A stretch of 62,410 nucleotides of DNA, filler included, from Dugesia japonica (lineage: Eukaryota): assembly GCA_001938525.1 (NCBI GenBank). It is 6 parts of 6 records of this genome, joined end to end, with 100 filler letters (N's around TTAATTAATTAA, not from the genome) between each part and the next. Parts side by side here need not be neighbours in the genome. Positions count along the whole stretch, not along the records: positions 29,304 to 40,079 come from MQRL01588590.1; 5 more parts are not named here. One strand, written 5' to 3'. This document shows, piece after piece, positions 8,552-55,212 of this stretch (position 1 is its first letter; every line of letters begins with the position of its first letter). Below the pieces are notes generated by a model. The model had not been told where the DNA came from, did not search any database, and saw only the letters and a program-made list of their open reading frames with translations. Both the position numbers and the translations under genes were made by a program.

Positions 8552-8601
<50 letters not shown>

Positions 8602-9073: not shown

Positions 9074-10513
9074 CTAACCGCTTGCATCCGTTGCCAGTAT
9101 AAATGGTTTCCTAAAATCTGGTTGTACCAATATNGGTGCCGTCATTAACTTTTCTCGAATTGTTTCAAATGCTTTTTGATGCTCATCTGTCCAGATGAAT
9201 TTTACGTCTTGTTTCACTAGTGATTGAATCTGTCTCACGATTGTCGCAAATCCTTTGATAAATTTTCGATAGTAATTTGCCATACCTAGTAACGCTTGAA
9301 TGTCGTTCACGTTTTTCGGCACAGGTAAATTCTTTATTTTCTCAATATTCATCGGATCCTGTTGTTTTCCTTTGTCTGATATCAGATGCCCCAAATAAGT
9401 CACTTGATTTTTCGCCCATTCACACTTTTTAGGTTTCACTCGTAGTTTCCATTCTCTTATTCGTACAAACACATTCCTCAAATCTTTCAAATGTTCCTCA
9501 AACGTGACTGAAAATAGCAAAAAATCGTCTATATATACAATACACTGAGGTTTACCATGTGCCACAAAATTGATGCATCTCTGAAAGGATTCAGGCGCGT
9601 TTGTCTATCCAAACGGCATTCGCACAAATTGATATAAATCTTTGCCTGCTGAAAATGTGGTTTTCTCTTTGTCTGTTTCCTCTATTTCGATTTGCCAATA
9701 TCCACTCCGCCAATCTAATGTCGTAAATATCTTTGCATTATATAATAACGTTAACATATCATTGATGTCTGGTAACGGATCCTTTTTCGTTTTTGCATTT
9801 AATTGTCTGTAATCAATACAGAATCTCATTGTCCCATCTTTCGTCTTTACTAATACCACTGTAAATTGCCACGGCAAACAACTTGGTTCAATTACTTTAC
9901 ATTTCAACATCTCATCAATTTTCTCCTCACATATTTTCCTGCTTGCCTCTGCCTGTTTGTACGTTTGCAACTTTATTGGTGTTTCGTCTGTTAACACTAT
10001 TGCATGCTTGGTCACCGCGCACGTGCCTAATTCATTGTCTGTCCAAGCAAAATATCTCTGAATTCTTCCAATAATTGCAATAATTTGGTTTTTTCTGCTG
10101 CTGATAAGATAGTTGATTCCACTTTGAACGTTCGATCTACTTCTTCCGAATTTGTCGGAATTCGATTTCCATTCGTTAGCCATTTCTTCTTTTAATTTCT
10201 CATAATGATTACTTACCACATGGTTCATTTCTGCCTCTTTATCTTCCAGTGGGGTTAATACTCCGATTTTGGAATTGGGGAAAATAGTTATATCTTCCTC
10301 TGTTATGTTCAGTACATTCACTGGTACTTTGCCCTCGTCGGACACTTTTACTATTTCCCTTGCTGCGGGCAATTTATATTGTTTCGAAAACCCTTCGTGC
10401 GGTTCAAAAATCATATCCTCTTTACAGTTTGCTCTCGTTTTTGCAATACAAAATACTTGACTTCTCCTTGGTATCACATACTTTTCGTTTGTATATACTT
10501 CGTTATCATCCAC
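9074..10513 (-). pseudogene. Gypsy reverse transcriptase plus start of RNase H, preceded by a dUTPase-like linker
   Basis: VVLVKTKDGTMRFCIDYRQLN, LDWRSGYWQI, RMPFG*TNAPESFQR, YIDD, YLGH, LGMANYYRKFI, PFILATDASG. Ends abruptly at 9074; no integrase follows. Confidence 0.97.
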
Positions 10514-10529
10514 ATATAAATTTTCTCAA

Positions 10530-10860
10530 GAATTTGATATTTTCAATGTGGTCATATCCAAGATTACATTTTTCATCAATAATGGAATTAAATCTGTTCC
10601 CAATATGCAATCTTCACGGATATTCATCACCGTCATTTCATGCGATACTGTTCTCCCTTGATACTCAACTTCACATCGCAATTTGCCATACACTTCTGGT
10701 TGCCATCCATCAGCTAAAAATATATCTGATTTATTCTGTGTAATGTATGGTTACTTGGTCGGTGATATTAGATTATAATTTAATACTAATATTGTTGCTC
10801 CGGTGTCCAACAACGCTGATAGTATCCTACCATCGATTTTTAGGTCTATTAATATTCGAT
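10530..10860 (-). pseudogene. Retropepsin aspartic protease #2
   Basis: IDLKIDGRILSALLDTGATILVL ... (one stop) ... IFLADG ... DCILGTDLI; in frame with RT. Confidence 0.9.
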
Positions 10861-11150
10861 TACCCGCTTCAGAATAATTGTAACACACAAAATCCTTTTT
10901 CTTCGTTCGTCTCCGACAATCTCTTAATAAATACCCCATTAAACCACACACATAACATCGATTCAATTTCTCACATTCCATTTCGGAATGCCCCTTTTTA
11001 TCACAAGTTACACAATGTTTGCCTTTCTTTCGACATTCTTTAGTGGAATGGTCCGGTCTTTGACAATTTATACACCAGTTTGGGCTATTCCCAGCTCTCC
11101 AACATTGACTTGATAAATTACCTCGTTTATCGCAATGTACACATTTTGCC
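10860..11150 (-). pseudogene. Array of 4-5 CCHC-type zinc knuckles (nucleocapsid-like)
   Basis: CVHCDKRGNLSSQC, CINCQRPDHSTKEC, CVTCDKKGHSEMEC, CYVCGLMGYLLRDC and a degenerate CYNYSEAGN. Two keep an intact CX2CX4HX4C. Confidence 0.9.
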
Positions 11151-11199
11151 TGAGTCCTTGTGAACTTGCTTCCATTCGGTTGTTGACACAAATTCAAAT

Positions 11200-11490
11200 A
11201 CAATTTTCCATCAGGAAATAGCCTTCCCATCATATTCAATCCCACAATACAATCAAAAACTAAGTTCGCACATTGCCACACTGCATACTACAATCCAACT
11301 CGCCCACTGTGTTCACGGCTTGTCCGGTTACCGTTATCATTTGAATCCCATCTTTACGCATTCTTGCTTTATCAACTTCATACAGAACGCGTTCGTCAAT
11401 TATTGATCTACACGCTCCTGTATCGATCATACAATCTATTTCCCTACCGTTAATTGTCAATTTTTTGAGTAATATTCTACCACCTGGCAT
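11200..11490 (-). pseudogene. Retropepsin aspartic protease #1
   Basis: LTINGREIDCMIDTGACRSII...MITVTGQAVNTVG, then after a frameshift FDCIVGLNMM (ILGxD-type motif). Confidence 0.88.
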
Positions 11491-12269
11491 TGTCATTGGT
11501 GCAAGGCTTCTAATATCCTTGCCTTTTATCACTTCGCTATCAGATATGATACTAAAATTGGTATCTTCGGGTGGTGCCGTTCCAATAACTTCGTTATCCG
11601 TTATTCCACACAATTTCTTTTTAGCCTCCTGCTCTGCCTCGAAGTCGTACTGTCTGCGTATTCGCTGTAATTCATCATTGGGATAGTAGATTAATTCTCG
11701 ATTTCCTGCATCGTAACCTGAATTCCATAGCTGCTTCCATGCTCTACTGTTCCTCCGTACTCTCCCATTCCCGGATCTGTACTGTAGTTTCTCTTCACTC
11801 CAATATCCGTTTAATTTCTCTTCTTTTTTAGATTGTCATTCGTTTTCGTTTTGATATTTACTAGATTGTTTGTTATTCTCACACCGTTGTACTCTCATTT
11901 GTGGGTGACCATAGCAATCAATTTCACTTCTCTCCTCCTGCTCATAGATATTATCTTTCGCAATATTCCCACCTGATCGTTGATTCTGAAAATTCACTTG
12001 GTAAACTTTTCGTTGCTTCCCATATCCGTAACTCGGTACTACTCCTCGTCTTTGGCGTTTACCATAATAATCATCGTTACTATCGTCACTACTGCTATCT
12101 TGTCGTTTCCGTGGTTTAAATACATCAAAATAGGATGTCTTCCTTGCTTTTCGTTTTCTCATGCCATCGCATACTGCAAGAACTTGTTCAACTATCTGCC
12201 TATCGGTTCCACCTAGTTGACTCAGATATCGCAATAACCTNNNNNNNNNNNNNNNNNNNNTTGAATGAC

Positions 12270-14160
12270 TATTGAGTACTACCGATTTAGCCCACTCTGG
12301 GAACAATCCCATAATCATTGTCCATGACATTTTTCTTTCTTTTTTGTATAAATCGAAACACGCTAGTAATTGAGTCAGTAATACTTTGATTATCTGCACT
12401 ATGACACTATTATTCCCAATAATCCTGTCATTGCTTGTCCGAAAACTATAAATCGACCCAACATCTTCTTTATTACATTTGCTGTTGGTTTTTGAAAGTG
12501 ATCTGGTGATAATAATAATTCATAATTCGGTCTCCCCTCTGACGTAAATGTTCCTCAAGCAACATACACAATATTAGATAAAATTTGCATTCGTTTGACC
12601 GGAAATAACATGTGCTCTCTGTCCTTCTATAGATCCTCCAATTTGTAGATACCGCCTTCTGCTACATTTAATGGATTAAAAGTCCGTCCCATCTTCAGTT
12701 TTAAGGCTGAAAAATTTCTCACAAAGGTATCTGCAGGTAATCTTTCAGGAAAACGTATTCATTTATTGTTAGCCATTTTGAAGTAGGGTCCAAATAAATT
12801 AGAACAGTTCAGTCTGTTCGGCACGAATACTTCTGGTGATATTACTCTAGTAATAGGTTGTACATACTGTTTTTCGCCCATATAATTGATTTCCATATCA
12901 TTATAGCAAGTTTTCTCTCTGGATAAAATTGCTTCCACCCTTCTAAATTGATATGTGAACATAATTTCTCCAAAAATTCGTCCGAATTGACCTTCCTCCA
13001 ATGGTAATACAGGGGTTACATTGTCGGGGTTTGTTATCGCTGTTGCTAATTTTGTCCGTAAAATTTCGCGATTTAACAAGCAGTCATTATAGATTAAATC
13101 ATGATACATTCGCTCCATAGATTGTTGCGCTAAGTAGAACAGAGTGTCTACTTTGTTATTCAGATATAAATATAACTTAGTATTCTGAGGCATAACTCCA
13201 TCTCTCGCCTTTTCCAGTCTCCGTTTTGATATGAAGATTCTATTGTAATTCGTTTTATATGCAATTTCTCCACACTTGGCCTCGGATTTCTTACGGATTA
13301 ATCTATTCATATCATTTGCATCGGTTGCCATTAATACGGTTGGTGTATCAGAACACAATAGGGCTTCCTCCTTGGTTTTCATCTCCACGTTTACTTTTCT
13401 GACTGCTGGCATTCTCTCCTCTTTAATTGAGTCTACAATTTTCTTTCCGCGATACTCATCGAACAAAACCTCTCTAAGAAATGANNNNNNNNNNNNNNNN
13501 NNNNNNNNNNNNNNNNNNNNNNNNNNNNNNNNNNNNNNNNNNNNNNNNNNTGAGGCCAAACACATTGAATACATCTTCATCTTTTTGGTCGTCGTATCAA
13601 ATAAGGCATCAAATTCTTTTAGTTCCACTCTATAACTTTCTATGGCTACTACTCCAGTCGCATAGCCTAAAGGGCTAGTGTATTTCCCCTGTACACAAGT
13701 TCCTGTTGCGTCCGAAATTGATCCTGCTGCGAATAAACGGGTTTGTACTATTTGATCTCCTTTGGCATTAATTATCTTTCCTTCGCCCACTGGTATTTTA
13801 CCGGTTGTAAATCCATATTCGCACCGTTGTCTTGTGAGGAGAACAGGTATTACTTCCATACCTGGGGATATGACTGCCGAATAACTACTTCCTCCACACC
13901 AATATACAAATACTTGCATTGTTACTTTACATTCTCTTACCTTTGTCTTATAATAAACGGATTCTTGGCACACAAAATAACTCATCGACTTCTGTACAAC
14001 TTTTAACTTTTCTGGGTTTGCTTCTGGGCATTCCTCTGCATCGATTAATGAATACACCGTTTCCCCGATATCCATATGATCACAATCATAAGCTCGGATT
14101 GCCGCACTTCGGCCCATTAAGAACATTAATATTAACACCATGAACATGGACTGCATACTG
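12270..14160 (-). pseudogene. Envelope glycoprotein related to chuvirus-type (class III, gB-like) fusogens, with signal peptide and C-terminal TM region
   Basis: Signal MFMVLILMFLMGRSAA, then IRAYDC..YSLIDAEEC, ECKV...YWCG..SYS, CGEIAYKTNY..IFI, YLNNK, CLLNREIL, GEIMF, CYNDMEI..Y.QPITRVI, C..LFGPYF. Manual continuation past the 12759 stop gives GGIYKLEDL..MLFP and the TM FIVFGQAMTGLLGIIV/IVQIIKVLL. Confidence 0.85.
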
Positions 14161-14258
14161 CTAGTTCTTGTACTTGGATTCGCTTCGGTTCCGTATTCGT
14201 CGATATAATCTTTTAATAATGCATGGACCCGTTCGTTTAATTTTCGACGCGAATTCGC

Positions 14259-14687
14259 TTTTGGTTTCATCATTTGGATTATTCCATTCCACCCTCCGGC
14301 ATTTACTAATATCGGATCGATTTGATCATTTGTTATTCCGACTATCGGCAGATTACTCAATTGAAATTTCATTCCTGGCCTACAACGAGCCACTGCTATT
14401 TGCGTTTGTTTTACTAAATATTCAAATGCCACTAGTAATTTCGGAATTGTCGAGCAATTCGACAGTACCCCTTGTACTTCTTTTTCCATCGTTTCCCGAT
14501 CCTTGAGTAGTGTATGTTTGGCAACTGGTAATTTTGCTATGATTGCTTCTAATATCACTGCTAATTGTTTGCTCTCCGTTGACAAAATTGTATTTCCGAT
14601 CCATAGTTTTAAATTTGGATANAGCGCTAGCAATACCTGGTGTACTCGTTTCTCGGTTGATAACGTGTGTGGTTCTAATCTCTCCAT
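14259..14687 (-). CDS. Bcl-2-like domain at the N-terminus of the 642-aa Env ORF
   Basis: BH1-like VQGVLSNCSTIPKLLVAFEY aligns without gaps to [20 protein letters not shown]. BH2-like ILVNAGGWNGI follows 40 residues later (39 in Bcl-2). Confidence 0.65.
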
Positions 14688-14690
14688 TAT

Positions 14691-15300: not shown

Positions 15301-15314
15301 TTACTACCTTCCGG

Positions 15315-18300: not shown

Positions 18301-18457
18301 TTCAAATGATTTTACTATTTTCTCAGTCGTTCTGAAATCAAAATAATACCACAATGGACGTTTAATGCGATGCATATCTACTTAATCAATTAACTTTATT
18401 GTTGTTTCACTTGGACAGACCCCATATTCCGATATATGTGCTTTAACATCATCTTGT
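15315..18457 (-). pseudogene. Repeated ubiquitin-like (beta-grasp) and helical modules in the 5' part of the retroelement polyprotein
   Basis: Ubl-like segments: TTVKDLLNAL..AHIYEYGLKPGTSMVITLL; VGELRAILSK..QHVIEFRLxPGEITELTL; VQVTVRFPDESSKEFDVKTTT; ETV*QMKFKI..LLLNNRELLNNxIIGTLDI. Internal repeats YW..W..LI.EY....TTVG and FRTTE.I..S..K each recur. Confidence 0.55.
18203..18392. repeat. 96-bp in-frame tandem duplication
   Basis: MHRIKRPLWYYFDFRTTE(K/Q)IVKSFEK is encoded twice, 96 nt apart. Confidence 0.9.
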
Positions 18458-28197: not shown

Positions 28198-29203
28198 TTA
28201 TTTTCTCATATTCCCCTTCTTAAGAAACTTTCTAAGTTTTTCCACATTTCTCTCTAAACACTGTCCATTTTCTCCTTGTACTGCATACCTCCTTTCATGA
28301 ATTTTCTCAATTATTCGATAAGGTCCCTCAAATCTGTTTTGACTTTTATTTCCTGTTTCTACCTTTATGAGTACATAATCGCCCACTTTGAATTCTCTTT
28401 TAGTATTTTCGTCTGAAATGTTTTCTTTAATTATATCTGAAACGTCTGACTCGTACCACTTTTCTCTGCTAATTTTCTTTCCAAAAACGATCTCAGCACG
28501 GCTCTTTCTAGTAGTCTTCTGCTTTGTTGCGTTCATTGTAAATTCTATTTCCGGTACAAGGTGTGCCCAATCTGTTGATTTTCTTTCTTGAAGGGTAGCA
28601 TTAATCAAATCTCGAATGGTCCTGAACTGTCTTTCTANNNNNNNNNNNNNNNNNNNNNNNNNNNNNNNNNNNNNNNNNNNNNNNNNNTGACTTTTATTTC
28701 TTGTTTCTACCTTGATGAGTACATAATCGCCCACTTTGAATTCTCTTTTAGTAATTTCGTTGGTAATGTTTTCTTTAATTACCACTTTTCTCTGCTAATT
28801 TTCTTTCCAAAAACGATCTCAGCCAGGCTTTTTCCATTAGTCTTCTGCTTTGTTGCGTTCATTGTAAATTCTATTTCCGGTGAAAGATCTGCCCAGTCTG
28901 TTGATTTTCTTTCTTAAAGGGTCGCATTAATCAAATCTCGAATGGTCCTGAACTGTCTTTCTATTTGTCTGTTAGCATTATGATGATATGGACTCGAAAA
29001 GCAAAGTTTAATGTCTAACTTCTGTGCAAACTCTCTCATAACTCTGGATTCAAACGCTTTTCCACAATCACATCTTATTTCTCTTGGACATCCAAATCTC
29101 AATATTTACTTTTCAAAAATAGCTTTTCATTTCGTTTCCTCGTCTTGTCTAGGCAATGGTATAAGAACCAGATATTTACTGTATTGGTCGATTATTCCAA
29201 GAA
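28198..29203 (-). mobile_element. Gypsy integrase fragment (DDE core + GPY/F module), partly duplicated across a gap
   Basis: IIDQYSKY, RFGCPREIRCDCGKAF, SPYHHNANRQIERQFRTI, FKVGDYVL..RFEGPYRI. Confidence 0.92.
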
Positions 29204-29303: not shown

Positions 29304-32300
29304 AGAGGAAATAATACGAGATTTGATGGGCCTGAGTGGTCCTAGCAGGAGTGGAGTAGCTTAAATAAAAAAAATTTGTTGTTCATGAAGTTTTGATTTG
29401 CAAATTGGTGTATGATTTGTGTATAAGAGATAACGAGTTTGATATGTAGGTCACAGTTAGAATGAAATACTGCAGAGGCGGTAGTGTGTTGAGGTTGCGA
29501 TTTTAACTTTGTTTTATGTTTATTTGTTGTAAGTGGCTTGGAGAATAAGTGATTAATAGAGAAATGGTGATTGCTCGGAAGGGCAGTTAACGGGGAGGTT
29601 GTGACGGATAACGTACCAATGATGAAACCTGAATAGTATCTTTGAATGGTATTTACTTTTATATTATAAATAACGCAAAGGTACCGATAATGTTGACATA
29701 GGGTTGTCTGTAAAATTACTTTGTTTCGATTATAAAATAATTGAAGTTCTTCTTATAATTTAGTGGATAAAGCTGCGGAGAAGAAACCAAATGTGACTGA
29801 TGTACTAGCNNNNNNNNNNNNNNNNNNNNNNNNNNNNNNNNNNNNNNNNNNNNNNNNNNNNNNNNNNNNNNNNNNNNNNNNNNNNNNNNNNNNNNNNNNN
29901 NNNNNNNNNNNNNNNNNNNNNNNNNNNNNNNNNNNNNNNNNNNNNNNNNNNNNNNAAGTGTATGCCGATCGAGAGGCAGTGACGTTCGCTAATTTGCGAT
30001 CGCTGTGGTTATTATATCGGGAGCTATCTACACCACCGTAGATTTAGATGCGGAGGTTTAGATTAATAAATAGTTTTCAAGTCTTATTAGTTCTCCTTTT
30101 TATTACAATGGTTAGGTATGACCAATTTTAGGGTTAATTGGGTTTATCGTGAACAAATACTGAGCATGTGAGAGTTTTGTTGTCAGGGTTCACGGATCGA
30201 TGAATAAGAAGCGATACCAGAACGTCGCGCTGGACACGTGGGAAGAGAGGGGCACATCACAGAGGTGATGCAAACGCTTGAGGTTTTTAGGTTGCCCCTA
30301 GATCAGGTGACAATTTATTAAAAGCGAGTACGAGTGAGAAGAGGTTTAAGACAAAAATCAAAATCCTAAAAGCCCAACATTACTAAAAACAACCTATATC
30401 AAATACTTGCTTTTTGATTTAATTCATTAAAAATAAGGTTTGGCAATTATTATACTAATATTAATGAATTTTATGTTTGTTTAATCGCATCAAATCAATT
30501 AAAAGACAATGAATAGACTAATTTATAATTAAATTCGAGAACAAAATAGTTTTCAAAATGATTATTTTTAGCTAGAAATGATCCCGATGTCATTCTGAAT
30601 TATCATAAATATTTTAAATATTTTTAAAACATTTGAATTATTTAAACAAACTCGTCTATTCTCTACAAATTTCCGTAAAAGATTGAACCCAAACAGACGA
30701 ACCCGAAGAAATTATTGCCCAAAATCACTCTAAAATCAGCCTTACAAAAGTATTTCCTTATAAAATTGTCCAAAAATTAAAATAATTCAGTAAATTTTAT
30801 ATAATTAGTTACCAGATTTACTCTATGTTTTTTTTCTATGTTCAAACTCATACCTTTGAATGATAAAGCACTTTGAACAATGAACCATTATTTTATTTAA
30901 ATGTTTAAACTCATATTTTTAATAACGAAACCAAATGACGGAGAAGAAGAAGAAGAGCAGGATTTAACCAGAAAAGAGAGAAAAGACTAGAAAAAGAAGT
31001 TATTACTAATCTGTATAGAAATAAAATAGTTATTTTAATATTCTTGTCACCTACTCTTTATTGATATTCTTTAAAACATAGTGATTTAATCCTGTTCCTT
31101 TTCCTCTTCTCCGGTGGATTATTTCTTACTTACATAGCAACTGAAAATTAATTATTACACAATAGATCAAATGTCGTATTTTTTATTATGTAATAGATTA
31201 CATATATGTATTTGTTATGCAATGGATCACGTGTAACTGAGACTCTGTTTTAATTATTTGTAGTCTTTTCAATAAAATATATATCATTCATTATCATATG
31301 TTTGCATCTCTCTTTGCTCTTTGGTTTCCTACTTGCTCCTCACTTCCCTGCGTGCACTTTGATTTTTTATGGATTCCTCGTTTTTAAAATACCTAATATT
31401 CAGTCAGTAAAATCAATCTTTTGACTATAACTTATGCATTATTATATGAATTCCTTATTGAAAATATGACTTTAACCATTTACAATAAAACAATGGTTCA
31501 TAGTTCAAAGTGCTAACTTTATCATTGAAATAATAGTCTTTTCATAGAAAATACGAGTTTGAAAAATCATTTTAATGATAATACTGATGAAAAAGATCTT
31601 AAAGATTAAAGTGAAGAAGAAAGGATATAATATTGGCCGTATAATTACTGAGAGAAACGGAATAATTTATTAGACATCAATATTGATGATATAATCAGAC
31701 GTTGTCTTGATCAACCATCAATTTGTACAATAATTACTGATATTTATACCAGAACAAAATTGAAATACGAATACGATACTGAAGAAAACAACAAGAAAAT
31801 TTAATCTTTTGAATGTAAAAACCGGTACTCTTTAGAGCCACAAATGCTGATTGATAAGAAGAAAAAATGTGGATTTTGTAAAAAAAAAAAACGTTCATTG
31901 TAAATAAAATTAATTTTGTTTTTAAAAAAATGTAATTAAAAAAAATTACTACAAACAAATTACTTAAAATAAATAAATTAAAATAAGTTTCAAAGTGATA
32001 TTTTAATTAAATAACAGATTTATAAAATGTATGATTTAGAAATGATAAACCAATGATTTTAAAAGTAATGATTTGAATTAAAAAATAATTTCTTTTGTTT
32101 CACCATCACTATATACTATTGTTCTACTTAATATTAATTCTACTGGTTCAACTTCAGATTGTCCGAGTATTCTTTTTTTGAACTTATTCGAATCTACATA
32201 AAACTTAATAATTCACAATATAAACTGAAATATAACGTTTCTTTGATTTTCTTTCTTTTCCTTTAATCTCTAAACAAAAATATAATATCTTTTAAAGCAT

Positions 32301-32452
32301 AACAAATTGAATATTATGAGTGAATTTTTGATTTTAAATTCACAATTTTGTAAATAGTAAAGAATACTATCAATTTAAACCAAAAAAATGCTTTGAAATA
32401 AGATGTCGATTACAATAATCTTTCTTGAATGAATTCAAACAAATGAAATGTA

Positions 32453-32456
32453 TTAA

Positions 32457-32527
<71 letters not shown>

Positions 32528-32530
32528 ATA
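32453..32530. repeat. (TAAA)n microsatellite
   Basis: Direct reading. Confidence 0.95.
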
Positions 32531-35010
32531 TTTATACATTATACGTTATATTGTTGTTTTTTTTTTAAAATTTGTGTATTAGTTTTTAAGGTTATATTTC
32601 CGTTATTTAATATTCACAATATTCGTGAATATTCATAAATAAAAAAAATGTTCGCCTGTGAATTAAGAAAATTAATTTCATAATTTATTCAAAATAAGAA
32701 AAAATGTTTGTTTCAAAAAATACAGACTAGAAAATTGAAAAGTCGATTCGGATTTCAAAAATAATAATAATCGTAGAAAAGTTATTTCGAAAAATATTCA
32801 TTTTAAAAAAAATATCCACTATAAAAAATTTATTTTAAAATATTAAATTGCATTTAAATATTTACAATAAAAAATATTTATCACATTTTAAATGGTAAAA
32901 CAATTATTACAATAAAATTTATTTAATATTTAAATTACAATACAAAAAACTTGAAAATCACAACTAATATTTTTTTAAATCCTTTATATAACTACAAAAG
33001 GATATAACTGATAATCTGATACCATAACACTTGGTCTGCCTTGCAATTTATAGTAGAAAATATTTATTTTCTGTTCTGCTCAAATTGTTCTAATCCATTC
33101 TACTTTTCTATCATCCGCAAAGGTTTCGCTCTTCAACACCCTATATACTTTTCCTGTAACTTTCCCTATATCACCCAACTTTTCAACACCTTGAAGATAT
33201 TCACTCACTTCATTTAACAATGGATTAATTAAATGTAAATAGATAGTAAATAATTAATCTAATTTATTGAATAAAAAATGTAAATGAATGAAATTTTTAA
33301 TTAATTTTTCAAAAACATTTTGTAATTAATGAATACAACATCTAATTAAAAATTTATTAATTGTTTTCTTATAAATTAATACAATTTTAAACAAATAAAT
33401 TTTTAAAAGGCTAAATTTTCTATAAATAAACAAATATTGTTTTCGTTTAATTAATTTATTTATTCATATATTAAATAACTGTACTCAATATAAAATAATA
33501 ATTAATTAAATTCGGTAATTAAATAAAAAGAACTTACCTTTTCTATTTTCATTAAAAAAACGAATATTTATTAAAATAATAATTGGAATGAAGATTCCAA
33601 GACAAATAGTTGCTAAATGGAAAATATAAAAATAAAAATGTGGCTACTTGAAAATTTATTAAACTGATTTAAAAATAACTTAGTATAATATAAATCGCAT
33701 AATTAATATTAATTTGAATACATTATCACTAAACAAATAATATTTTGAATAAAAAATAGAAAAAACAGTTTTATTAATAATAGGGGTTGTTAGATGAATT
33801 TGGAGTACTCAGCGGATCATCAATATCAAACTCAATTCGATAGATTTTATTTTTTCAAACAAATTTGAAAATCTATATTCAAAGAAGAAAGTATCATTTA
33901 TCAGCCTTTTGTAAAATATTTCAATTTAAAATTTGGAATATTTTATTTTATTCTATCTAAATTTTATTAATGTTAAATTTAAAAATACAGTAAAAAAACA
34001 ATATTTCATTGACACTATTTTCTAGTCTTTTCATTTAAAAATTTTATCTTTTATTTTTTTCTAAACTTTTAATAATTAAAATTATATTAAAAATATTTTT
34101 TAATGCCAAACAGAAATTTGAAAATTCTGTGCTAATTCCCACACTTCTTGCTGATTCTGTCCCACTTTCCAATAGTTTTACGTAATTATTTATGTATAAT
34201 GTTTGTAAAAATCTGAATAACAAATCATATAAATTACCAAAAAATTATTAACGATAATGAAATTGATTAATATGTATAAAATCCTAATCACTCCCGGGCA
34301 TACTTTGCTAATAATTTCCAACAATTGGTTTGTTTATTATATTGAGTTTTATAGAGTTTAATGGTTTGGATGGCATAATTATATGCTAAATATTTGGTTA
34401 TACTTGTTTGAAAGTACTATAGATATGTGATATTTATACATATGTTTAAGTAGACTTAATAAAACAAGTACACATCTTTTGAAATTAATGTTTAATTCAA
34501 AAACATGAGTAATAGACTTAATGTAATCACTGTTTACCTAAGAAATTCATGTGTATAATCTGTTAGTTATGAGAATTAAAATACTTACCAATAAAACAGA
34601 ACAGATAATAAATCACAGAATAATTAATAAAAAACACAATATATTTCACTTAAAATATTTATTTATGAAAGTGGGCCATGCTCTTCCCATTGTATTCACT
34701 TATACTCTGTGTATCCACTCATGTTCTGATACTTCATCATATTACGGCCACTGTTCATCTAGAACCTCGTTGTTATTTATCTTGATATAATGGAAATTTA
34801 GTTTGATAGCTTCCACGTTAATGATATAAGTATTAAAATTAAAATTATTCATATAAAATTTCAACCAATCAGATTGTATTAATGTTATAGTTGCATTACC
34901 CTATCAAATTCAGAATTGTATACACACTTAAACTTATTTTACTTATAAGGTTTGAGTTTTTATTATGATGATAATAATAAGAATAAGAATAAAAATAATA
35001 ATAATGATAA

Positions 35011-35060
<50 letters not shown>

Positions 35061-35399
35061 TTTTTACCATTAATAGACAGACAGTAGTGAGCTGAACCAT
35101 ACCCCCTTCTGCTCCCGGAGTGGAAAACGTTTTGGTTCATAATTTTAATAGACGACCAGACGTTTACTGTAATTTGATTGGTCAAAATCTTTAATGTCAA
35201 TACGCCTAGAATTTGATTAGTTGAATTTTTTTGTGAATGCATTACGTAATAATACCATGGCTACGTAACATTTATGCCATATTCACGTGATCATTACATA
35301 ATAATCAATTTGTTTACATTAAGTGGAATTAATGATTCTCTATTTAATTAATGATTTTCAAATCTATTATTTAAGAATTAAATTATCTATATGGATATT

Positions 35400-37120
35400 A
35401 TTTTCTCGAAAAAACTTTGGTTGTCTCAGAAAATGTAGTGGCGAACTAAACCATTTTGATTTTTGTTTAGAAATTTCTAGATCAATAATGATCGTTTGAT
35501 GATAGAATCATTAGACCCGGAATAAAATTCTTTCTGTACATTGTCTAAAGGACTTATAGTGAAAAAACATGGTTGAGGAAGTAACATATAATTATAAAAT
35601 TATTTATAACTTATAATTATCATTAACTAATATTTTTTTAATATTTTATACCTTTTAACGCAAAATTAAAAACCATATATGAATATAACTTTACTTTTTC
35701 TAAACATGCTTGGTTCTCTCAAAAAAGGTAATGGTGCACTTAATCAGTATTCTCCTTTAAAGATATAGAAAATTTTGAATCGAAACCGGTATCATTAGCT
35801 ATATAATTATTAAGAAGATCAGGTATGTGTTCATCAATGCTTTTTGAAAATGCTTCATTCTATATGAAACTCAAAATCTTTGTAAGATAACTTTTGACTT
35901 AAGGTTCACCTATACAAGTTATTAATGTTAATGTTCAGCTAATCTATATTTTCATCAGAAACAACATGATGTTTGTTGAAAAAAGTGAGACATCATCTTA
36001 TATCATCTTCAAAAAACGTATACATTAACTCCCGAATTAAGTACTTGTTTTTTCTATATAACTTTTTTATGTATAAGGTTTATTGATTTTTAACCATGTT
36101 ATTCATACTCAGATATACACACTTATTAGGAAACATTATTTCCTAGATGGTATTTCATCTTAATACAGTTACTTTTTCCTCATGATTTGAGTTGATAGCA
36201 GTTGTCTGCACATAGAGTTCTCAGTGCTGAAATCAAGGTTTTGAGATGTTTTCACCACAAAACTTCATTTATTTCATCAAGGTTTAACATTGTTGAGTTT
36301 AGGTTAACATATTTAGAATTAACAAAATATTCGCTATCGAATAGATACTTTCTTAACCTATTTTAAAACGAAAATATTTTCGAAAAACCCTGTGCAAAAT
36401 AAATACACAGGGAAATATATCACCAAATTAACCAATATTATATAATATGATGCAATCTTTTAATTTCTAACTAGGATTTCTATTAGGATTGAGTTTCATT
36501 ACATCACTAATTCTGGAGGGGGGACATTAGTGATGACCACTACTATCTATCTACTATTTTTTAATGAATTGCTGAAAGAAATCAGTTAACAGAAACAAAT
36601 CCAATTTGAAATAGACCACTATTTAATCCAAAATGTTCTTAGATTTAAGGATTTCCCCAGCTTTTAGACATGACTTCTCGCTAACGTTATTCCATCTTGG
36701 TGGCAGGCTTTTTGTTTCTATTATAATTTCCAAACTCGTAGCAAAATAATATTGGAGATCCACTTTGATGTTATTATTCAACTATAACTAAATTATTATG
36801 TTGTCATTAATAATTTTACAGCTGCTTCTGACGACGAGTTGATAAATTTATATGAATCAATAAATCTGACGATTGCTTATTTATTTTGATTAACTGTGAG
36901 ATAGGGAAAGTTGACTATTTAATTTACATTTAATTTCCAAATTTGGAAACATACTAAGAACATACCTAAGAATATGATGGAGATAATATCTTATGAGACT
37001 ATGGAAAACAATCAGTAACTGTTTATATATATTTTCCTAAAAAAACATCTTTTACATGATGCACGTAAGTATGCTCCCATTACACTAGTGATTATCATCA
37101 TAAATATCTACCAACTTCTA
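35400..37120 (-). pseudogene. Heavily degraded Polinton-type protein-primed DNA polymerase B
   Basis: Collinear relic motifs from manual translation: DDNH..GAYLRASC..C, IVFHSL.RYYLHHI (FHNL.GYD.H), VRFIDSYKFINSS (~36860), FFEDDIR (FE.GIRGG) and NINNLYR*TLSQKLSYKDFEF (D.NNLYGWAMSQ.LP, ~35900). Confidence 0.62.
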
Positions 37121-38383
37121 CAGGATTGTTGAAACTAAACAACTAAAACATTGAAGCTAAACACAGTCAATTTATTGTTGAATACTGTTTTCAAATATTT
37201 AGAAGAAGTTGATAATATTACCAATAATGTAGTGTATCCTTACTATTTAGAACATAGAAACTAGAAAATGATGATAACTTCTGATCAGTTTGCTATCACG
37301 CCCACATTAAATAGCGTTGTGAATTGAAATAAATTATGTGTATAAAAAGATATGAATAAATAACCAATTGAAGAATTACTTAACAAATATTATTAGATGT
37401 TAAATATAGATTCGGCGTTATCTGTTAATATAATGAACAATATAATATTCTGAGCAAAATTAAAATGATAAACATCTCTCATTAGTGACGTTCTATCGAA
37501 CAGTAAAACTAGCGCATATCTTTGGCCTCTAAATTTAAGGGGCCTCTAAATAATCTAATTAAATATTATTATATTTTGACAATTTCTATGCATTTTGCCA
37601 TAAAATATTGTATTTTACGACTACCTTTTGTGTGACATATAAAGCTTTGCGATAATTGCTCTTGCCGTAGTCGATTGTTTGGCTTTTCTAGGTATATTTA
37701 CCTTCTACCGTCAGAAAAAGTAGATAATCCATTCCATCTGCAAATACGATATTTTTTCTATTGTATGTTTTCATACCTGAACGTGTAAAAACTAAAAAAT
37801 ATGGAAGCCCCAATTTACCTAAATTGTCATTGTAATCGAATGTTTGTATCTCAAACTATTGTAACCTGAACTAAGAAACAAATCATTCCACTGTCTGAAA
37901 TTAACTGGACAACATCGAGCCATCACTCAAGCAATTTTTTGCGAAAATAGAATTAAGTTATTGTACAATTCAAATTATATTTGTCCATCTTTTTATGTCT
38001 TTTATTTGTATATAAATTTGAATTCATTATTTTTCCTTTAATAATTTTATTGTGAACTAGTTTTATGATAGAAAAATTCAAGTTTGTTTTTAACGAGTAA
38101 TCAGAAGTTGAAAATATATAGCCGTTGAAAAAGAACAATTAAATCATTCATTAAAGATATAGTACGTACAGTATGAAAGAAATCCATACCTCTGCCTTCT
38201 AACTTTCAAATGATCTAATCATATCAACTTGGTAATATATGTAGGTTTAATTTAATTATTTACAATTTATAGGATATTGTTGATCAAATTTTGAAAGCTT
38301 CAAATCGTTATTTAAGTAATTAAAGTGATGAGTTTTAAATTAAAGATAGACGATTGAAAAACAGTTTAACCATGTTTAATAAA

Positions 38384-38707
38384 CCCGCCGTGATTAGGGA
38401 TTCCAATTGTATATTCGAATTATTCGTCTGATTTTTCAGCTATTCGTTATTCAAATATTTTATCAACTATTCGAATAGTATTCGTGTATATATTTTGCAA
38501 TATAAAAACATAGGAAAATTTATTTTTTTTAAAAGATTTCATAAACAAGTTATATTTCGCAATATTTGGTGTTCGATTATTTAAAACTGGAGTATAATAG
38601 TTAAATTTTTTAAACTATATGTACTTTAAAAAAACGTATAAAAATACTAATTAAATTGAATTTTGTATAGCCCGGTTTCGATATATAAATACCATAATCA
38701 CGGCGGG
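38384..38707. mobile_element. Non-autonomous piggyBac-like MITE
   Basis: Ends cccgccgtgattaggg ... ccataatcacggcggg are inverted repeats. Right flank is TTAA and left flank TAAA (one mismatch to a TTAA TSD). Confidence 0.7.
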
Positions 38708-39310
38708 TTAACAAAACAGAATAAATATATTTTTTTAATTTTGTTTATAATTTATTGAAATGATTTATTTTAAATAAAATTCTGATATTATTGAAAAATC
38801 TTCGAAAAAATGCACATTAATTATATAACAAATTCTTTGTTTGTGTAAGTTGGTAAATAATTTTATATCATTTAATAAACAATTATAAATATAAAATAAC
38901 ATAAGAAATAGATTGTGAATTTTAGAATTTTAGATTTAACATATCATAGTCCCTTTGTATTTTGGGTAACCAAAAGATTTTTATATCTATCAAAATGTAG
39001 TTATAAAAACATTTACTTGTAATTGGCGTTGGTGAAAAACCTGAAATATAATATGGTTATTTGTTATTAAATTAAAAAATTTAATAATTTAAAATAAATT
39101 CTAAAAAAAATCAAATTTCAATTAATTTACATAATTTTATATGAGGAAAATGAGGTAAAAAGAGAGAATGAGATTAAACTCGATGAAATTTCGGATAGCG
39201 AGGAACAGATATGTCAATTTAGAGAAACGCCAGAAATTTCATACAAAGTTAAACCCTATTCAAGTTTTACAAAAGTGCAACGATCAAGCAATAACTGTTA
39301 ATTGTTAAAA

Positions 39311-40079
39311 ATGGCAGAAAGAATGATTGAGAAGTCAGAAAATTGTAAAAATACCAAAGAATTACGAGAATGTGAATAAATTTTAAAATAATTGTTGAGT
39401 GAAATATATTGTTTGTGGCTAATACGATGTGATACAAGTGTTTATACTAAAGATATAGGAGATAAGTTGATTCAAATTTACCCAAGCATAATGACGGAAA
39501 TGAATGTAAAAGACACTTATAATGATCAGAAAATGATTAATAAATAGTTTGACAATGGATGTACTAAAAATAAAATTTTAGTCGGACTTGGATTCTTAAC
39601 TCAGCAAATTGGCCTTAATATTTCAAATGATGGTAGAAATATGGGAATTTTGATAAAAGACGCAACAAAAATTATAAATTATATGTATGATTTTATCCTG
39701 AAACAATGAGGTTGGGAATCCTTGTCGGTTTTAAAACCGATAAAACCCAGAAATCCATCCTTTTCCTCAAGATTTGGAGGTAATGTTGTTGATAATGATT
39801 ATTTTGATCAGTTGTATAAGCGTTAGTACAGCCTTAACAGCTTTTGATTGTTCTCAAACTGAATTGGGAAAAATATATTCATTAGTTAATGTGGTGGAAT
39901 GTCTAGGTGCACATTCGTTAAAATTGAAAACAGAAAAAATGTACCATATTATGCGTATCAATAGTCAGGAATTCGTCGGACAACAATTCGGAAAAGAACA
40001 ACTTTTATATTTTATTGTGGAAAATGGAGTCACTCATCATTAAAAGATTTTAAATCAATTCCAAGACCAGTAGATATTA
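39311..40079 (+). pseudogene. Second, diverged Bcl-2-like + signal peptide + glycoprotein N-terminus cassette (degraded, cut by contig end)
   Basis: One frame from ATG 39311, with several stops: BH3-like TKDIGDKLIQIY, BH1-like FDNGCTKNKILVGLGF, BH2-like FILKQ*GWESL. After a frameshift: VMLLIMIILISCISVSTA-LTAFDC..IYSLVNVVEC and later FYCGKWSHSS, homologous to IRAYDC..YSLIDAEEC..YWCGGSSYS at ~14090. Confidence 0.78.
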
Positions 40080-45629: not shown

Positions 45630-47960
45630 TCTAACTGGTATTCACAGTAAACACGATGGCAAAAAAGAAAAGATGAACGACGAAATTTTTTTTCGAAATT
45701 ACCGTCTTCAACTTAGGAGCCGAGTTTTTTGATGGATCATCAGATAAAGCTAAAGAGTGGATTCAAATAACAAAAGAGTTCAGGTCGTTCAATCGGATGG
45801 AATTATAGTTTGCTTTTGATATGCTAATGCGCCAGAATGGTAAGGAGTTCTGGTTGGCAAAAACAAAAGAAGTTGAGAAATTGTCTAATGAAATTTGTGA
45901 ATTTTAGTTTCAAGAATCATTCATAATTCAGGAAACATTGGTTGATAAGGTTTCGATCTTGTCAAAAATAATGCAGAAACCAAATGAAAAATTACGAAAT
46001 TTTGAAATTAGAGTAAGAAAACTAGTCAATGAAGTATTTTCAAGTAAGAAGTCATTCGATGAAAAAGCTACATTGTTTATAACTAATAGCATACAGAGCG
46101 AAAAGTTGAAGGAATCATTTGTCCTCCGATCAGAGTTAACTGATATCCAACGACGAGAATTGGGTTCTAAATCGGTTAATCTAATACCAACACACTCTAT
46201 CAGTATGGTGAAAGAGATTTATTCTAATTGATTAAAAATTAATTAAAAATGTGTCAATTCAAATTTGGAAACAATCACCCGAAGATAAGTGTTCAAAGTG
46301 ACACAAATATTAGAGACCGACAACTCCATTTCAAAAAGATCCGCATTTCGAACAAAGCAAGTCGACTCAAAGACAAGGTCAGTATAATTTTCTGCAATAT
46401 TCTTTGACATATTTAGCAAATAAACTATATTGTAAAGCTAAAGGGACGATACCGCCATGAAACAAAATCATAAAGACAGGAGCATGTTTTTGCTGTGGAG
46501 AAACTAGTCATAGAAAGATGAATTGTCCATNGAAAGGAAAATGCTTAATTTGTGGAAAGGAAAGTCATGGTTTTCGGGATTGTTTATTGATTTGAGCAAG
46601 AAACTTTTCGGTGTCTAAAGTTTTGTGTATTTCAGAAAAGAATGATAATCAATTCCGTACAAGGGAATATATAGATTATATACATGATGGATTATATACA
46701 CGATAGATTACAAAAAAACGATTGGAAACCCACTTCATCCATCTTATCATTGAGGTTACAATAACGGATTGTAAAACGACAGATGTAAGAATGATATTTG
46801 ACAAAAAGAAGATATTTCAGAAGAAAGATGGAAGAGAATAGAGTATAGAGAAATATATATGACGTTGAAATTTTATGGGATTCAGGAGCATCGATATCAG
46901 TATTGAGATAAGAAGTTTAGAGAAAAGTTGAATCACCGACGCTATCGCAGTCACAGATTGTGTTATCAGGAGTTTTTTCAGAGAAAGCAAAAAGATGTAT
47001 TGGCAAAATTAAATTACATTTACATTGGTATGGGAAACGAAAAGAAAATAGTAATTGTCAAAAATATTCGTCACGGATTTATTGTGGGCATTGATATGAT
47101 GAGGATATTTGGAATGAAAAAAACCGAAGTTGACTTTATTGATTCAATTGAGCGAATTGTTGAGAATCCAAAAAGAGTGAAAAATGTTCTGAATATTCAA
47201 AAGAATGTCAATCAAGAAATTAGAAGACTGATAGAAGAACACGTAGAGATATTTATAATATCCAAATTTGATCTTGGATTTACATTGAAACCAAAAGAAG
47301 ATCAATAATGTTAAATCCTAGAAGACAACCAATGCATTTGAAAAGAAAGATTGACGAGTTTAAAGATAAATCCGGATAAATGCGTATTAAATTCTGAGAA
47401 ATTGCGATTCTTGGGTCATTCCAATAGTGCTATAAGTGTAGAGACAAACTATGATACTGTCAGGAAAATCGGAGAAGCGGACACACCAAAATGCGCCACA
47501 TTTCTAACCAACTATTACAGGCGGTTTTCTAAAAGACTACGCTCACATTACAGCACCATTATATGCAGCCATTGCAAGGTAATAAAAAAAATTGAATGTA
47601 CAAACAAATGTGAGTATAGTTTTCAAATGTTAAAGATAAAGTTAAGCAGTCCTATTTTGGCTTTTCCAAATGATAAAAATGACATAATATTGGAAATATA
47701 TGAATGTTTTGCGGCAATTGGAGGAGTTTTAAGCCAAGTTACAAACTAAAAGAATAGAAACGAGTAATAAATTATGGTTCTAACACATTAAATGATCATA
47801 AAAAAGGATATTGCGTAACTTGCAAGGAGTTTTATAATTACAATTATTGGTGGACTTAATTATTGATCACGTTTGAGATTTTTTTTGATCGAAGCCTTTT
47901 CTTTATTTTAATGAAATCGCAAGGAGTTGTTGGCATTGCACAAGTTCATGGTGCACTGAA
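45630..47960 (+). mobile_element. Degenerate conventional Gypsy gag-pol fragment
   Basis: Gag-like FFDGSSDKAKEWI..Q.PNEKLRNFEIR, knuckles CFCCGETSHRKMNC and CLICGKESHGFRDC, protease DSGASIS..FIVGIDMM, RT thumb LKINPDKC..FLGH..NYYRRF, RNase H AIGGVLSQ..YCVT.KEL. Confidence 0.85.
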
Positions 47961-50912: not shown

Positions 50913-51040
50913 AATGAAAAAATATGAAATTTGGATGAAAATTAAGGTGGAAAATGAAAGTAAGTGATTATCTTTAATTTACAAAATTAAATTAATTATC
51001 AAAGAATTTAATTAATTAAGGAAACTAGAGAAATGTTTAC

Positions 51041-52774
51041 TCTTGTTTAACTTTATCAAGGATTTTTTCTTCCTGAGTTTGTTCTTGTAGTTTTTTCATT
51101 AATATTTCCCGTTTTTTCTGTTCAGCACATTCTATTTGACTCTTTAAAATATCTTGTGCTTTCAATCTTTTTTCAATCAGTTTTTCTTGATTTACATCAT
51201 TTTTACCGAATACTGGTTCTTCTGAATCTGGCTGTAATTTTGGAATCGGTAGAGATTTATTGACAACTTGTGTATCAAGAGCTTTTTTATAAAGATCCTT
51301 TGACTTCTCTTTGTCTTTCAAATATTGATCGCGTTGCTTAGCCAAATCCTCTGCTAATTGCATTTGCTCTAATCGTTCTATAAAAGCTTCTTCTTCTTCA
51401 TTTTTCTTTCTTGTTAAAACCTTTTTCTCAACCTGTTTATCAAGTTCAGAACTGAAATTTCATTATAGTTAAATAATAAATAATACAAATAAAATGGAAA
51501 CCTTAAAATACTTTGCTTAATGATTTTTGGTGGAGTAAGTGGTCTACTTTCAAATAAATATGATCTATACATGTTAGGATCTTTTGACTTATGTTGTGTT
51601 TTAATGGCTTCTGCAACTCCGGCATTGAAAGCAGAGATTTTCTGACTATCATATTTCTTTGATAGAAGAGTTTCCTGAAAATAAGAGTTTCAATTCAGGC
51701 AACGATTTGAAAATTTAATATCAAAATAATATTATTAAATAACGGAAATAAAGCAGAAAGTCACTGAGACAACTTTTAATTTTATTTCATACTACTCACT
51801 AATTACAATCAGAATTAGGTGGACCTATTTTACTTTCTAAATACAAAGAAATAGAATAAAGATCATATTGACATTAAATTAAAAACTCTCAATATACTCA
51901 GAATACTACTGGATAGAACAAATTTCTTAAAAATTAATGAAATCTTTGCCATTGTCTAAAACAGTGAAAGCAACGACAAATGTGATGTAAAAATATATTT
52001 TGCTCTACAGATTCGACATATATAACCTTTTTTTCCTTATTTTCTTAAGAAACAAAAATATTAAAATTGATTCAAGTGGTCTCATTCTTTGACATTAAAT
52101 AAAGTAATCACTGGGAAAAACCTATTTAGGACAAATATTTTCCGGTATGGTAATAGGTTAAATTTTATTAGAAAAAGTGAACACATTGCAAACAATATAA
52201 AATCTGTAATCAGATTAATTCGACAACGAAATTTAAAAAAGAAAAATGTAAAAAAACTTCATAATCAATAATTTTAGATAAAATGCTGGAAATGTTACTC
52301 CATAATGAGAAAATAAATTATCAAGCCATGACAATATGGAATTAATTCCATGTATATTTTAATTCCAATTAAAAAATTAAGTTATCCCGCGAGATTACTA
52401 TCTAAATTATCAAATAGAAAATTAATTCTAATTCTAGCAACATCTATTGTATTTGAAGCCACAATTTTTCAGTTATTATTTTCATATCTATTGTGACGAG
52501 GACCTTTTCATAATCATTAAAAATTATCTCAAAATAATTTAAATAATGAATGATGAATGTGTCTAGGTTTGTAATTATTACTTAGTAGCCATTTTATATT
52601 TTGATGTGAAACAATTAATGTTTATGAACAAGTTTTATTTGGAGAAATAACAAATGTTAAAACAATAAAACAATAAAATAAACTAAACCTTTAACCTTTA
52701 CCGTATTAATCCAATTTCATATTATATATGGAATTAAACTTTTTGTTTGTATCTTTATTGTCGTTAATATTAAA

Positions 52775-52846
<72 letters not shown>

Positions 52847-54428
52847 NNNNNNNNNNNNNNNNNNNNNNNNNNNNNNNNNNNNNNNNNNNNNNNNNNATAA
52901 TAATAATAATAATAATAATATAATAATAAAAATAATTATATTATTATTATTATTATTTATTATTATAATTAATTAAATAGGAATTATAATGAACAAAAGT
53001 AAAATGATGTAATTTATAAAAGGAATTATGTAGTTGTTATAAATTATGACTGTCCAAAATACGGCCAGCGGCCTATTTTTCCATACAAAAATGTTTTTTC
53101 TTTTTTAAAAATTTCGAAATATATTTTTATTAAATTATTACTTAATTTTGATTATTTAATTGAAAATGTTAATGTCTTCTAACAATAATTAATTTTTTTA
53201 AAAATAATTTAATTCTAACTTGAAATTTTAAATCATATTAATTCTTTTGGTTGATTTATAGGAAGTTTGATTATTTATTTAGTAAAGATTTTTAAAACTG
53301 ATTAAGTTTTTCTATATTAATTGTTGCTAAGCCAAGAAGTTTTGTAGTCAACTTGTTAGCAACCACGCACATCGAAATCGATATAGATACATTACTAAAG
53401 GAAACAGAACGGCCGCAAAATGTACCTGAACCTTGTTTTAAACTGAAAAAATAAACGTTTCGTTATTAGTATTTCTAAAAACACTTGCTAAACATAATAA
53501 TTGGTCGATTTTTCAAATATTTAATTCATTACTATTATCTTGTTTTATTTTTGGTGTGGCTCGTGAAAAAATATAATTTTTGAAATCGGCCCTCAGATTA
53601 CCTTAATTTTAAACGAACCTTACAAAATACCTAATAGGAAATATGTCTACGTGTAATAAAAGTGTTAAAATAAATCTCTTATATTTATACGCGAAATGTG
53701 TCAAGATTTGGCTGCACTATAGAAAATATATTTCTAAAAATTTAATCTTTCATATTATATGAAACAAAACTTTAACCAATAATTAATATGTGCAAAAGAA
53801 TGATCTTCTACAAATCACACCTGGATTACGAAACCTTTTCCCAATAATTTCATTTAGGGCAATAACGAATAGATATTTTAGAAAGTAAATTGATATAAAA
53901 TTTATATTAAAATTACCTGTTCTTTCATTAAATGTTCCGTGTCTTTCATATTTTGATAGGCTTGAAGAACTCTTTCTTCTTCTTTTTCTCTTTCTTTTAA
54001 TTGTTCTCCAAATGAAACCGGTATGTTTCGTTTTTCACGTTGATAGCATACATAACACAAATCTTGTCCAGATGGTCCGGGATGTCCACAAATTGATGAT
54101 GCTGCAGTTGACGGTCGACCAGAACATATTGATGATGGCTTTTTCGGTTCAGATAATAGAAAGGATCTTAAAGGTGGCTTTGGCGTAGGTAAAGGTTTTG
54201 ATAGTATATCCAAATCTGATTCGGTTAAAGATTTCTGTTCAATTATATTACCGTTTTGTACTGTTGGTTCATTTGAATTTATTGATTCATCAAACATTGG
54301 ATGACTGTCAATAGATGGATTAATTTTGTTGTAATTAAATCCCTGTTCCTCTGAAAGTCCAAGATAATTATTTGATTCACATATTGATTTGGTATCATTT
54401 CTGTTCAATATTTGTTCGCGTGCCTCTC
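51041..54428 (-). CDS. CCDC81: Coiled-coil domain-containing protein 81; internal exons 53917-54428, 51502-51674 and 51041-51451
   Basis: GQDLCYVCYQREKRN, AFNAGVAEAI, SYLFESRPLTP, ERLEQMQLAEDLAKQR, YKKALDTQV, PDSEEPVFGKN match CCDC81 as I recall it. GT-AG boundaries keep the frame, including a 50-nt intron at 51452-51501. The acceptor at 54428 is the least certain boundary. Confidence 0.9.
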
Positions 54429-55212
54429 CTATTTTCACAATTAAATCGATCAATGTCGAAGAAGAAAAAAAATTAATTCTATTGATTTTGTAAATTTTAA
54501 TAACTAATATTACCACTAAATTCAATGATTAATTATTTATAAACAAATGAAAGCTTATATTTTAGAAATAATAATTTAAAAAAGATCTTATCATTATACC
54601 ACTAGTTAGCAATCAATGGGACAACTTTTAATTTTATTTCAACTAATAAAAATATCGTATTTCACCATCGATAACGCATGGGTTATCATTGCAAAAAAAA
54701 GCGCTTAAAAAGACAAAATGAATAGTGCAAGAAAACATTTATCTATTATATGAAAATGTAAGACTATTGAATGGCCACTATCTAACAATTTTCATTAAAT
54801 AACACTAGATTTGTGAGTTTCATAAGATGCGCGTTATCGATAGGAAATTATGGTTCATAAATTATGATAAAAAATAAAAGTTTTAGGACATAAGTATACT
54901 TTAATAAATTCCCAATAAAACGAATCGTGAATTATTACTCAACAATTACTTCATGGAGATAGTTTAAATAAAATGTATTCATCCATAAAATTTCCCTTCA
55001 ATAATAGATAATCCTGTACAACACAAACATTTTTTTAAAGTTACATCATTATTAAAATATTAAATATAAAAATTGTGTAATGAAGTATAACAATTATGGG
55101 ATATGTATCAATAATGACTTTGATACATTTGTTTGTATAAATTATTCCATAATCTTTTTCTCATCATAATTTATGCTTATATATATTTTTTTATTTAATT
55201 AATTATTTAGAT

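Follow-up and report, generated by a model that had tools for sequence, protein, structure and literature searches.

A dead, truncated copy of a repeat joining a divergent Bcl-2-like domain to a viral-type fusion glycoprotein in Dugesia japonica

Giant Gypsy LTR elements known as Burro/GYPSM1 have been described in planarians, including Burro-1 to -4 of Schmidtea mediterranea and a relative in Dugesia tigrina (PMC6431247). According to the available text of that report, Burro ORF1 (about 4,900-5,100 aa) contains Gag, MATH, BIR, ankyrin, SUMO-like and BCL2-like domains, and the region between BCL2 and protease is an Env homologue that matches the fusion glycoproteins of arthropod and fish mononegaviruses. 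The in-frame order of BCL2-like domain, Env and protease is given there for Burro-1 to -4 and the Dugesia relative, decaying Burro-like fragments are noted in Dugesia japonica, and the apoptosis role of the Burro domains is said to await experiment (PMC6431247). The accessible part of PMC8532177 states that loss of SMEDWI-2 leads to expression of BURRO1, while the corresponding parts of PMC11410931 and PMC13238120 only mention Burro. Within the literature searched, outside which most subscription papers lie, no further report describing an element with Bcl-2 and Env was found, nor any functional assay of the domain.

Here, we have analyzed a 62-kb stretch of D. japonica DNA (the window), which is composed of six short AT-rich contigs joined by spacers (GC per kb, 0.11-0.40) and parts of which are contained in 20 of 24 listed sequencing runs, all from one organism and belonging to 9 studies. 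The finding concerns the final 770 bases of the contig at 29304-40079. We consider it quite probable that these bases come from a high-copy repeat, likely a Burro-like Gypsy LTR retrotransposon, in which a divergent Bcl-2-like domain, a signal peptide and a fusion glycoprotein are joined, and that this copy of it is truncated and dead. The novelty implied by the original prediction does not stand, as a BCL2-like domain, an in-frame Env and a protease had already been described for Burro in the text available of PMC6431247. The fragment at 39141-40079 is a new decayed copy of a published kind and, since the layout is in print, adds little alone.

A dead copy of an abundant repeat at a contig end

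The element fragment (39141..40079, plus strand) is 5'-truncated and reaches the contig end, as delimited by a depth step, loose ends and GC content (0.298 vs 0.209 in the preceding kilobase). Contigs of two DNA runs (X1 and X2) and reads of two RNA runs (X21 and X22) were aligned to 38400-40079 at 80% likeness, and both the depth step and the loose ends ahead of 39141 were supported by 5 contigs of X1 and 18 reads of X22. These loose ends indicate that other copies continue upstream with different sequence and hence that this copy is truncated at approximately 39141; it is only 0.94 kb long, one end being lost there and the other at the contig end (40079). The same contig carries small MITE-like elements with inverted ends at 38357-38734, where depth is also raised, and at 30867-31514.

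On the plus strand, the fragment comprises a decayed Bcl-2-like domain with four internal stops (39311..39745; frame translation and profile scores), a hydrophobic internal signal sequence of the glycoprotein in a frame other than that of the Bcl-2-like part (39780..39833; mean hydropathy of 3.13 over the 15 aa of 39780-39824), and the N-terminal tip of a Monjiviricetes-type fusion glycoprotein (Env) spread over two frames (39834..40079; PF24664 and tblastn), which begins with LTAFDC..YSL..EC at 39834. The positions given in the original prediction for the BH3, BH1 and BH2 motifs, for the stop codon (39707), for the hydrophobic run and for LTAFDC..YSL..EC were confirmed by translation. The order of the proposed Bcl-2, signal peptide and glycoprotein layout is also present, but the reading frames differ, that of 39311 being used by the Bcl-2-like part and that of 39744 by the glycoprotein, with a further frame change in the tip at about 39917-39935. 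The BH frame contains a fifth stop at 39824. Among 40 of the 180 difference rows, which were those listed, 21 BH-frame differences were distributed 6/8/7 over codon positions 1/2/3, as expected for neutral decay of the copy, and two of its five stops fall on difference places listed in the same 40 rows. With five stops, parts in different frames and both ends cut, this copy is dead.

The tip matches PF24664 (Monjiviricetes fusion glycoprotein) at E 5.9e-4 and 18.3 bits, below the cut-off; in a tblastn comparison with the protein P0153, which itself matches PF24664 at E 1.4e-18, it reaches E 1.5e-19 in two frames. The distance from the BH2 tryptophan to AFDC is 124 nt in the copy and 48-78 aa in its relatives. 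P0151 and P0153 are the nearest proteins among those compared (46-50% in parts); both are UniParc records and apparently chimeric gene models joining a glycoprotein tip to host genes, P0153 beginning with MRP-L47. The six-frame Pfam scan of contig 29304-40079 detected 0 Pfam families, and no pol, gag or LTR of this family was seen within the contig, which ends at 40079.

Mean summed depth in X1 was 16 over the unique flank (38904-39015), 1589 over the BH part and 1940 over the glycoprotein part; the corresponding X2 values were 11, 1978 and 4907. Relative to the flank, BH and Env are at 99- and 121-fold in X1 and at 179- and 443-fold in X2, a ratio that is not a copy number. The BH and glycoprotein parts are also connected in other contigs (39676-39788, 39723-39912, 39724-39786 and 39287-39868). 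The roughly 100-440-fold depth of both parts, together with these joining contigs, identifies a multi-copy element rather than a stray host pseudogene, which agrees with the earlier proposals that this family is abundant and that the BH piece belongs to an element. That a host Bcl-2 pseudogene adjoins an Env fragment by chance might be suggested by the different frames of the two parts in this copy; such an origin is already contradicted by the depth and the joining contigs, as well as by four outside proteins and the first family of the window, in which the domain precedes Env in one ORF, and we regard it as barely credible.

In RNA run X22, 156 reads aligned, of which 3 matched at 95-99% and none reached 99%; the 14 reads of X21 were all only partial fits and were set aside. 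Related copies are transcribed, and no transcript from the 39141-40079 copy was seen in X22. None of the indexed runs listed as containing part of the stretch was an RNA run, an absence that carries no weight.

Other contigs of the window contain decayed Gypsy pol pieces, namely an integrase at 28803-29195 (minus strand) and an RT/RNase H at 47318-47749 (plus strand). Exons of a probable host gene lie at 51037-54528 (minus strand); they have no significant Pfam match and presumably resemble CCDC81. DNA-transposon remnants are present at 56056-57076 and 60676-61765 (both on the minus strand), which by eye are BED-finger/hAT-like and pogo/Tigger-like, and a nearly identical 380-bp repeat that spans the N gap (61056-61105) resembles an assembly overlap.

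Homology of the Bcl-2-like domain

Three motifs can be located in the domain. A BH3-position helix motif, KDIGDKL, lies at 39449..39469 (plus strand; motif reading and depth), its glycine not being the common state of the family. The BH1-position motif FDNGCTKNKILVGLGF, which includes the start of helix 5 and has no NWGR, occupies 39548..39595 (plus strand) according to a profile alignment to Bcl-xL BH1, and the BH2-position motif, FILKQ-stop-GWESL, is found at 39692..39715 (plus strand; motif reading and alignment) with its stop at 39707. For comparison, a six-row profile was built from this copy, the first family and four outside proteins (P0006, P0010, P0013 and P0014). The BH2 pattern W-x-x-x-x-G-G-W was found in the Bcl-2-like domain, and G134 and W135 of BH2 are invariant in all six rows, the stop breaking the motif in this copy. 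BH1 reads TKNK at the position of the Bcl-xL NWGR; none of the six rows has the W or the G of NWGR, and only the basic residue is kept in each. The spacing from BH1 to BH2 is 52 residues vs 54 in Bcl-xL. As for BH3, GD occurs in this copy only among the six rows, and the glycine codon carries another letter in 97% of X1 summed depth (961.5 of 990.2) and in 15/15 X22 RNA reads, so that IGD is likely private to the 39141-40079 copy.

When scored against a profile of the four outside element domains, the 39311-39745 frame (with X at stops) reached 34.1 bits, a value attained by 0/1000 shuffles (maximum 10.4; reversed sequence 0.3), and it ranked top of the 1248 six-frame tiles of the window. The first-family domain scored 8.2 bits against the outside profile (0/1000 shuffles; maximum 7.3), which is a weak margin. 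The earlier description of the present motifs as more canonical therefore holds in that this copy is the clearer of the two (34.1 vs 8.2 bits), but not in the literal sense, given TKNK instead of NWGR in BH1, the private BH3 glycine and the lack of a Pfam match. Leave-one-out scores were 24.8-43.6 bits for five of the six rows and 9.3 for the first family.

It has to be considered here whether the BH motifs resemble those of Bcl-2 by chance, within a helical domain of the element that has no relation to Bcl-2, as the single sequence of the Bcl-2-like part of the copy matched no Pfam family and, in a phmmer search of PDB, no Bcl-2 structure. The profile E-values are modest (1e-3), and the AlphaFold model based on six rows is helical and weak (pLDDT 54.9); the first-family domain folded as a single sequence gave a pLDDT of 37.2. 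Word-index searches returned 0/326 candidates with the N-part of the first family and 0/1060 with the six-row alignment, an Atlas search with the domain yielded no usable match, and a wide structural search with the weak model retrieved generic helical bundles (best Z 6.6), with no Bcl-2 among the 50 rows listed. On the other hand, a PDB search with the six-row profile gave 159 matches up to an E of 10, the best 60 of which all came from Bcl-xL or Mcl-1 (best E 1.1e-3) and had their BH1 and BH2 aligned in register. PF00452 was matched by four of the six rows (best E 2.3e-5; P0010 at E 9.6e-4), the scores listed for relatives (18.8 and 20.1 bits) staying below its gathering threshold of 31.4 bits, and the 40 Foldseek rows listed for the weak model all belonged to the Bcl-2 family, none of them being significant (best E 0.12, TM about 0.35). 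A chance resemblance thus appears improbable. Bcl-2 homology of the domain is established at the sequence level, by profile rather than by single sequence, and a small six-row alignment now detects it where Pfam fails. The domain is also, judging from the alignment, divergent and not canonical, with no NWGR and scores below the Pfam cut-off, and the lost W and G of NWGR argue against a canonical BH3-binding groove.

Relatives, age and a possible role

A first family with a comparable layout lies at 8552-18457 in the window. As originally stated, the 39311-40079 piece is on its own contig (29304-40079) without obvious nucleotide similarity to the first family, self-blastn of the window giving no match between the two, and a second family does exist in the window. 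At the protein level, the glycoprotein tips share 33% over 63 aa (E 2e-8), and the two Bcl-2-like domains align in pairwise BLAST at E 0.007 over 40 aa. All features of the first family are on the minus strand: a Bcl-2-like domain in frame with its own glycoprotein (14241..14618; ORF and profile score), a signal peptide and fusion glycoprotein (12405..14150; PF24664 at E 6.3e-26 and 3.7e-24, tblastn), and, downstream of the glycoprotein, a Gypsy-type protease, reverse transcriptase and RNase H (9077..11544; Pfam and tblastn).

The order after the first-family Env in 9077-11544 is protease, several CCHC knuckles, second protease, RT and RNase H, and two or three proteases likewise follow Env in P0004, P0006, P0007 and P0008; the double protease could be a clade trait or reflect a nested second element. 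Upstream of the first-family domain, two short ubiquitin/SUMO-like stretches were noted by eye at 15846-16262 (minus strand), as in the Burro map, and one upstream in P0013; Pfam and PDB searches gave no confirmation of these stretches. A 96-bp tandem duplication (97% identical) occupies 18201-18397 at the far end of the contig of the first family.

Using the ORF of the first family as query against 1.84 billion representatives, 536 matches were obtained at E 0.001 or better, 150 of which were listed. We scanned 21 matches picked for length or upstream extension, and in 10 of the 21 a single ORF encodes PF24664 followed by an aspartic protease or RT. P0006, P0010, P0013 and P0014 (a single ENA record each) possess a GGW motif that precedes the start of the glycoprotein by 57-87 aa and contain the Bcl-2-like domain and the glycoprotein in one open frame, with 17-24% identity to the 39141-40079 copy; the order is domain-Env-protease in P0006 and zinc knuckle-domain-Env in P0014. 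Of the 17 outside proteins in which 100 aa or more precede the start of the glycoprotein, these 4 carry the domain before the glycoprotein (24.8-43.6 bits, leave-one-out) and 13 lack it (at most 1.9 bits), some of the 13 being short, chimeric or not element-type. The domain is therefore widespread, not universal.

The sharing of the domain by two diverged families of the window and four outside proteins at 17-24% identity suggests that its capture is old. A tree of the glycoprotein N-part was built with 30 rows, 7 of 36 chosen rows having been dropped for want of the anchor motif. The domain label requires 5 changes on it, which is not below the level of shuffled labels (293 of 500 as low), and the starred branches force at least 2 domain changes; P0016, the sister of the first family (99/94), has no domain, and the 39141-40079 copy (branch 3.88, 40% of columns) was not placed. 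One old capture followed by losses would be the simplest reading of this poorly resolved tree. With regard to the earlier view that the fusion is an old, conserved feature of the clade, its age is borne out by the four outside relatives, and its unrestricted conservation is not, considering the 13/17 relatives without the domain and the scattered label on the tree. Locus scans of viral contigs found none, and those of metagenome contigs found none and then one distant glycoprotein at 21% (L001). An Env-pol polyprotein, P0009, is filed under a Flavobacteriaceae MAG, probably as contamination.

PF24664 is common to Monjiviricetes-like RNA viruses and to non-Gypsy carriers such as BEL/Pao, no pol is seen beside the copy, and its tree branch is long, so an origin of the fragment from such an endogenous virus or carrier deserves mention. 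It has a small chance of being correct in our view: the best matches among the compared proteins are element-type rows, one of the four domain-bearing relatives has proteases and another a zinc knuckle in the same ORF, and the high depth fits a replicating element. Under the preferred reading of a Burro-like Gypsy element, intact copies would encode one polyprotein with the order Gag-(accessory domains)-Bcl-2-like-Env-protease-RT, an order suggested by the zinc knuckle upstream in P0014, the proteases downstream in P0006, and the protease, RT and RNase H downstream in the first family.

Internal signal sequences allow processing by signal peptidase after the hydrophobic run. A cut at this point in the polyprotein would release Env into the ER lumen and would leave the upstream Bcl-2-like part tail-anchored on the cytosolic face, which is the topology of cellular Bcl-2. 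Such an anchored domain would most likely dampen or delay the death of the producing host cell during particle making; we tentatively favor this dampening role, with confidence a little short of even.

Poxvirus Bcl-2-fold proteins without a groove act as adaptors that block innate signaling or aid membrane targeting, and the main rival reading of the same element and fold assigns such an adaptor role to the domain here. Consistent with this, NWGR is replaced in 6/6 rows with only the basic residue kept, the BH3 glycine is not the common state of the family, and 13/17 outside relatives manage without the domain. The invariant BH2 GW and the Bcl-xL-like BH1-BH2 spacing (52 vs 54 residues) point the other way, as do the BIR domains of Burro in the text available of PMC6431247, which suggest apoptosis control; an adaptor role is rather unlikely, if far from negligible. 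A Bcl-2 homologue on a transposon could bias host-cell survival, which would matter most in animals that have adult pluripotent stem cells. In a broader proposal, a wide clade of Gypsy elements with in-frame Env, extending beyond planarians, would have inherited the Bcl-2-like/Env cassette from its ancestor and lost it many times, and the Env signal peptide would also tail-anchor a functional anti-death protein. We consider this speculative and unlikely; if true, it would represent a retroelement-borne viral Bcl-2 keeping its host cell alive.

Comparison with described systems

The comparison with Burro was made against its published description. As in Burro, a BCL2-like domain was found directly upstream of Env at 39311-40079, and this Env is homologous to mononegavirus-type fusion glycoproteins; a high copy number, an AT-rich genome and decayed fragments with stops and frameshifts are further points of agreement. 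The Burro Env is placed before the protease, an order also present in P0006 and the first family, whereas the contig of 39141-40079 ends before that point. In contrast to Burro elements of 25-30 kb with LTRs, the 0.94-kb fragment shows no Gag, MATH, BIR, ankyrin, SUMO-like domain, pol or LTR. The single gag-Env-pol frame of Burro is seen only partly in P0006 and P0014, and in the first family as the domain-Env join, and the zinc knuckles between two proteases after the first-family Env are absent from the published Burro map. One BURRO1 primer had no match in the window, a single primer being a weak test.

With the Bcl-2 family (PF00452; Bcl-xL and Mcl-1) and its viral homologues, the domain shares a BH1-helix 5-helix 6-BH2 core that could be aligned by profile, the invariant BH2 GW, and a downstream hydrophobic segment that could anchor it. 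It differs in the loss of the BH1 NWGR, in scoring below the Pfam cut-off and in being part of a polyprotein. Unlike that of the cellular Bcl-2 family, the anchor here would be the Env signal sequence, which is also present in relatives without the Bcl-2-like domain.

Anakin belongs to the BEL/Pao elements. Among retroelements that have captured a glycoprotein of chuvirus type, Anakin and BEL/Pao are named in the accessible part of PMC12440569; Troyka elements, which are without Env according to the same text, were rejected as a counterpart. The fragment resembles Anakin and BEL/Pao elements in that its Env derives from the Monjiviricetes fusion glycoprotein family, whereas, unlike Anakin, its element-type relatives mostly have an in-frame Env that precedes a Gypsy-type protease and RT, some of them with the Bcl-2-like domain in front.
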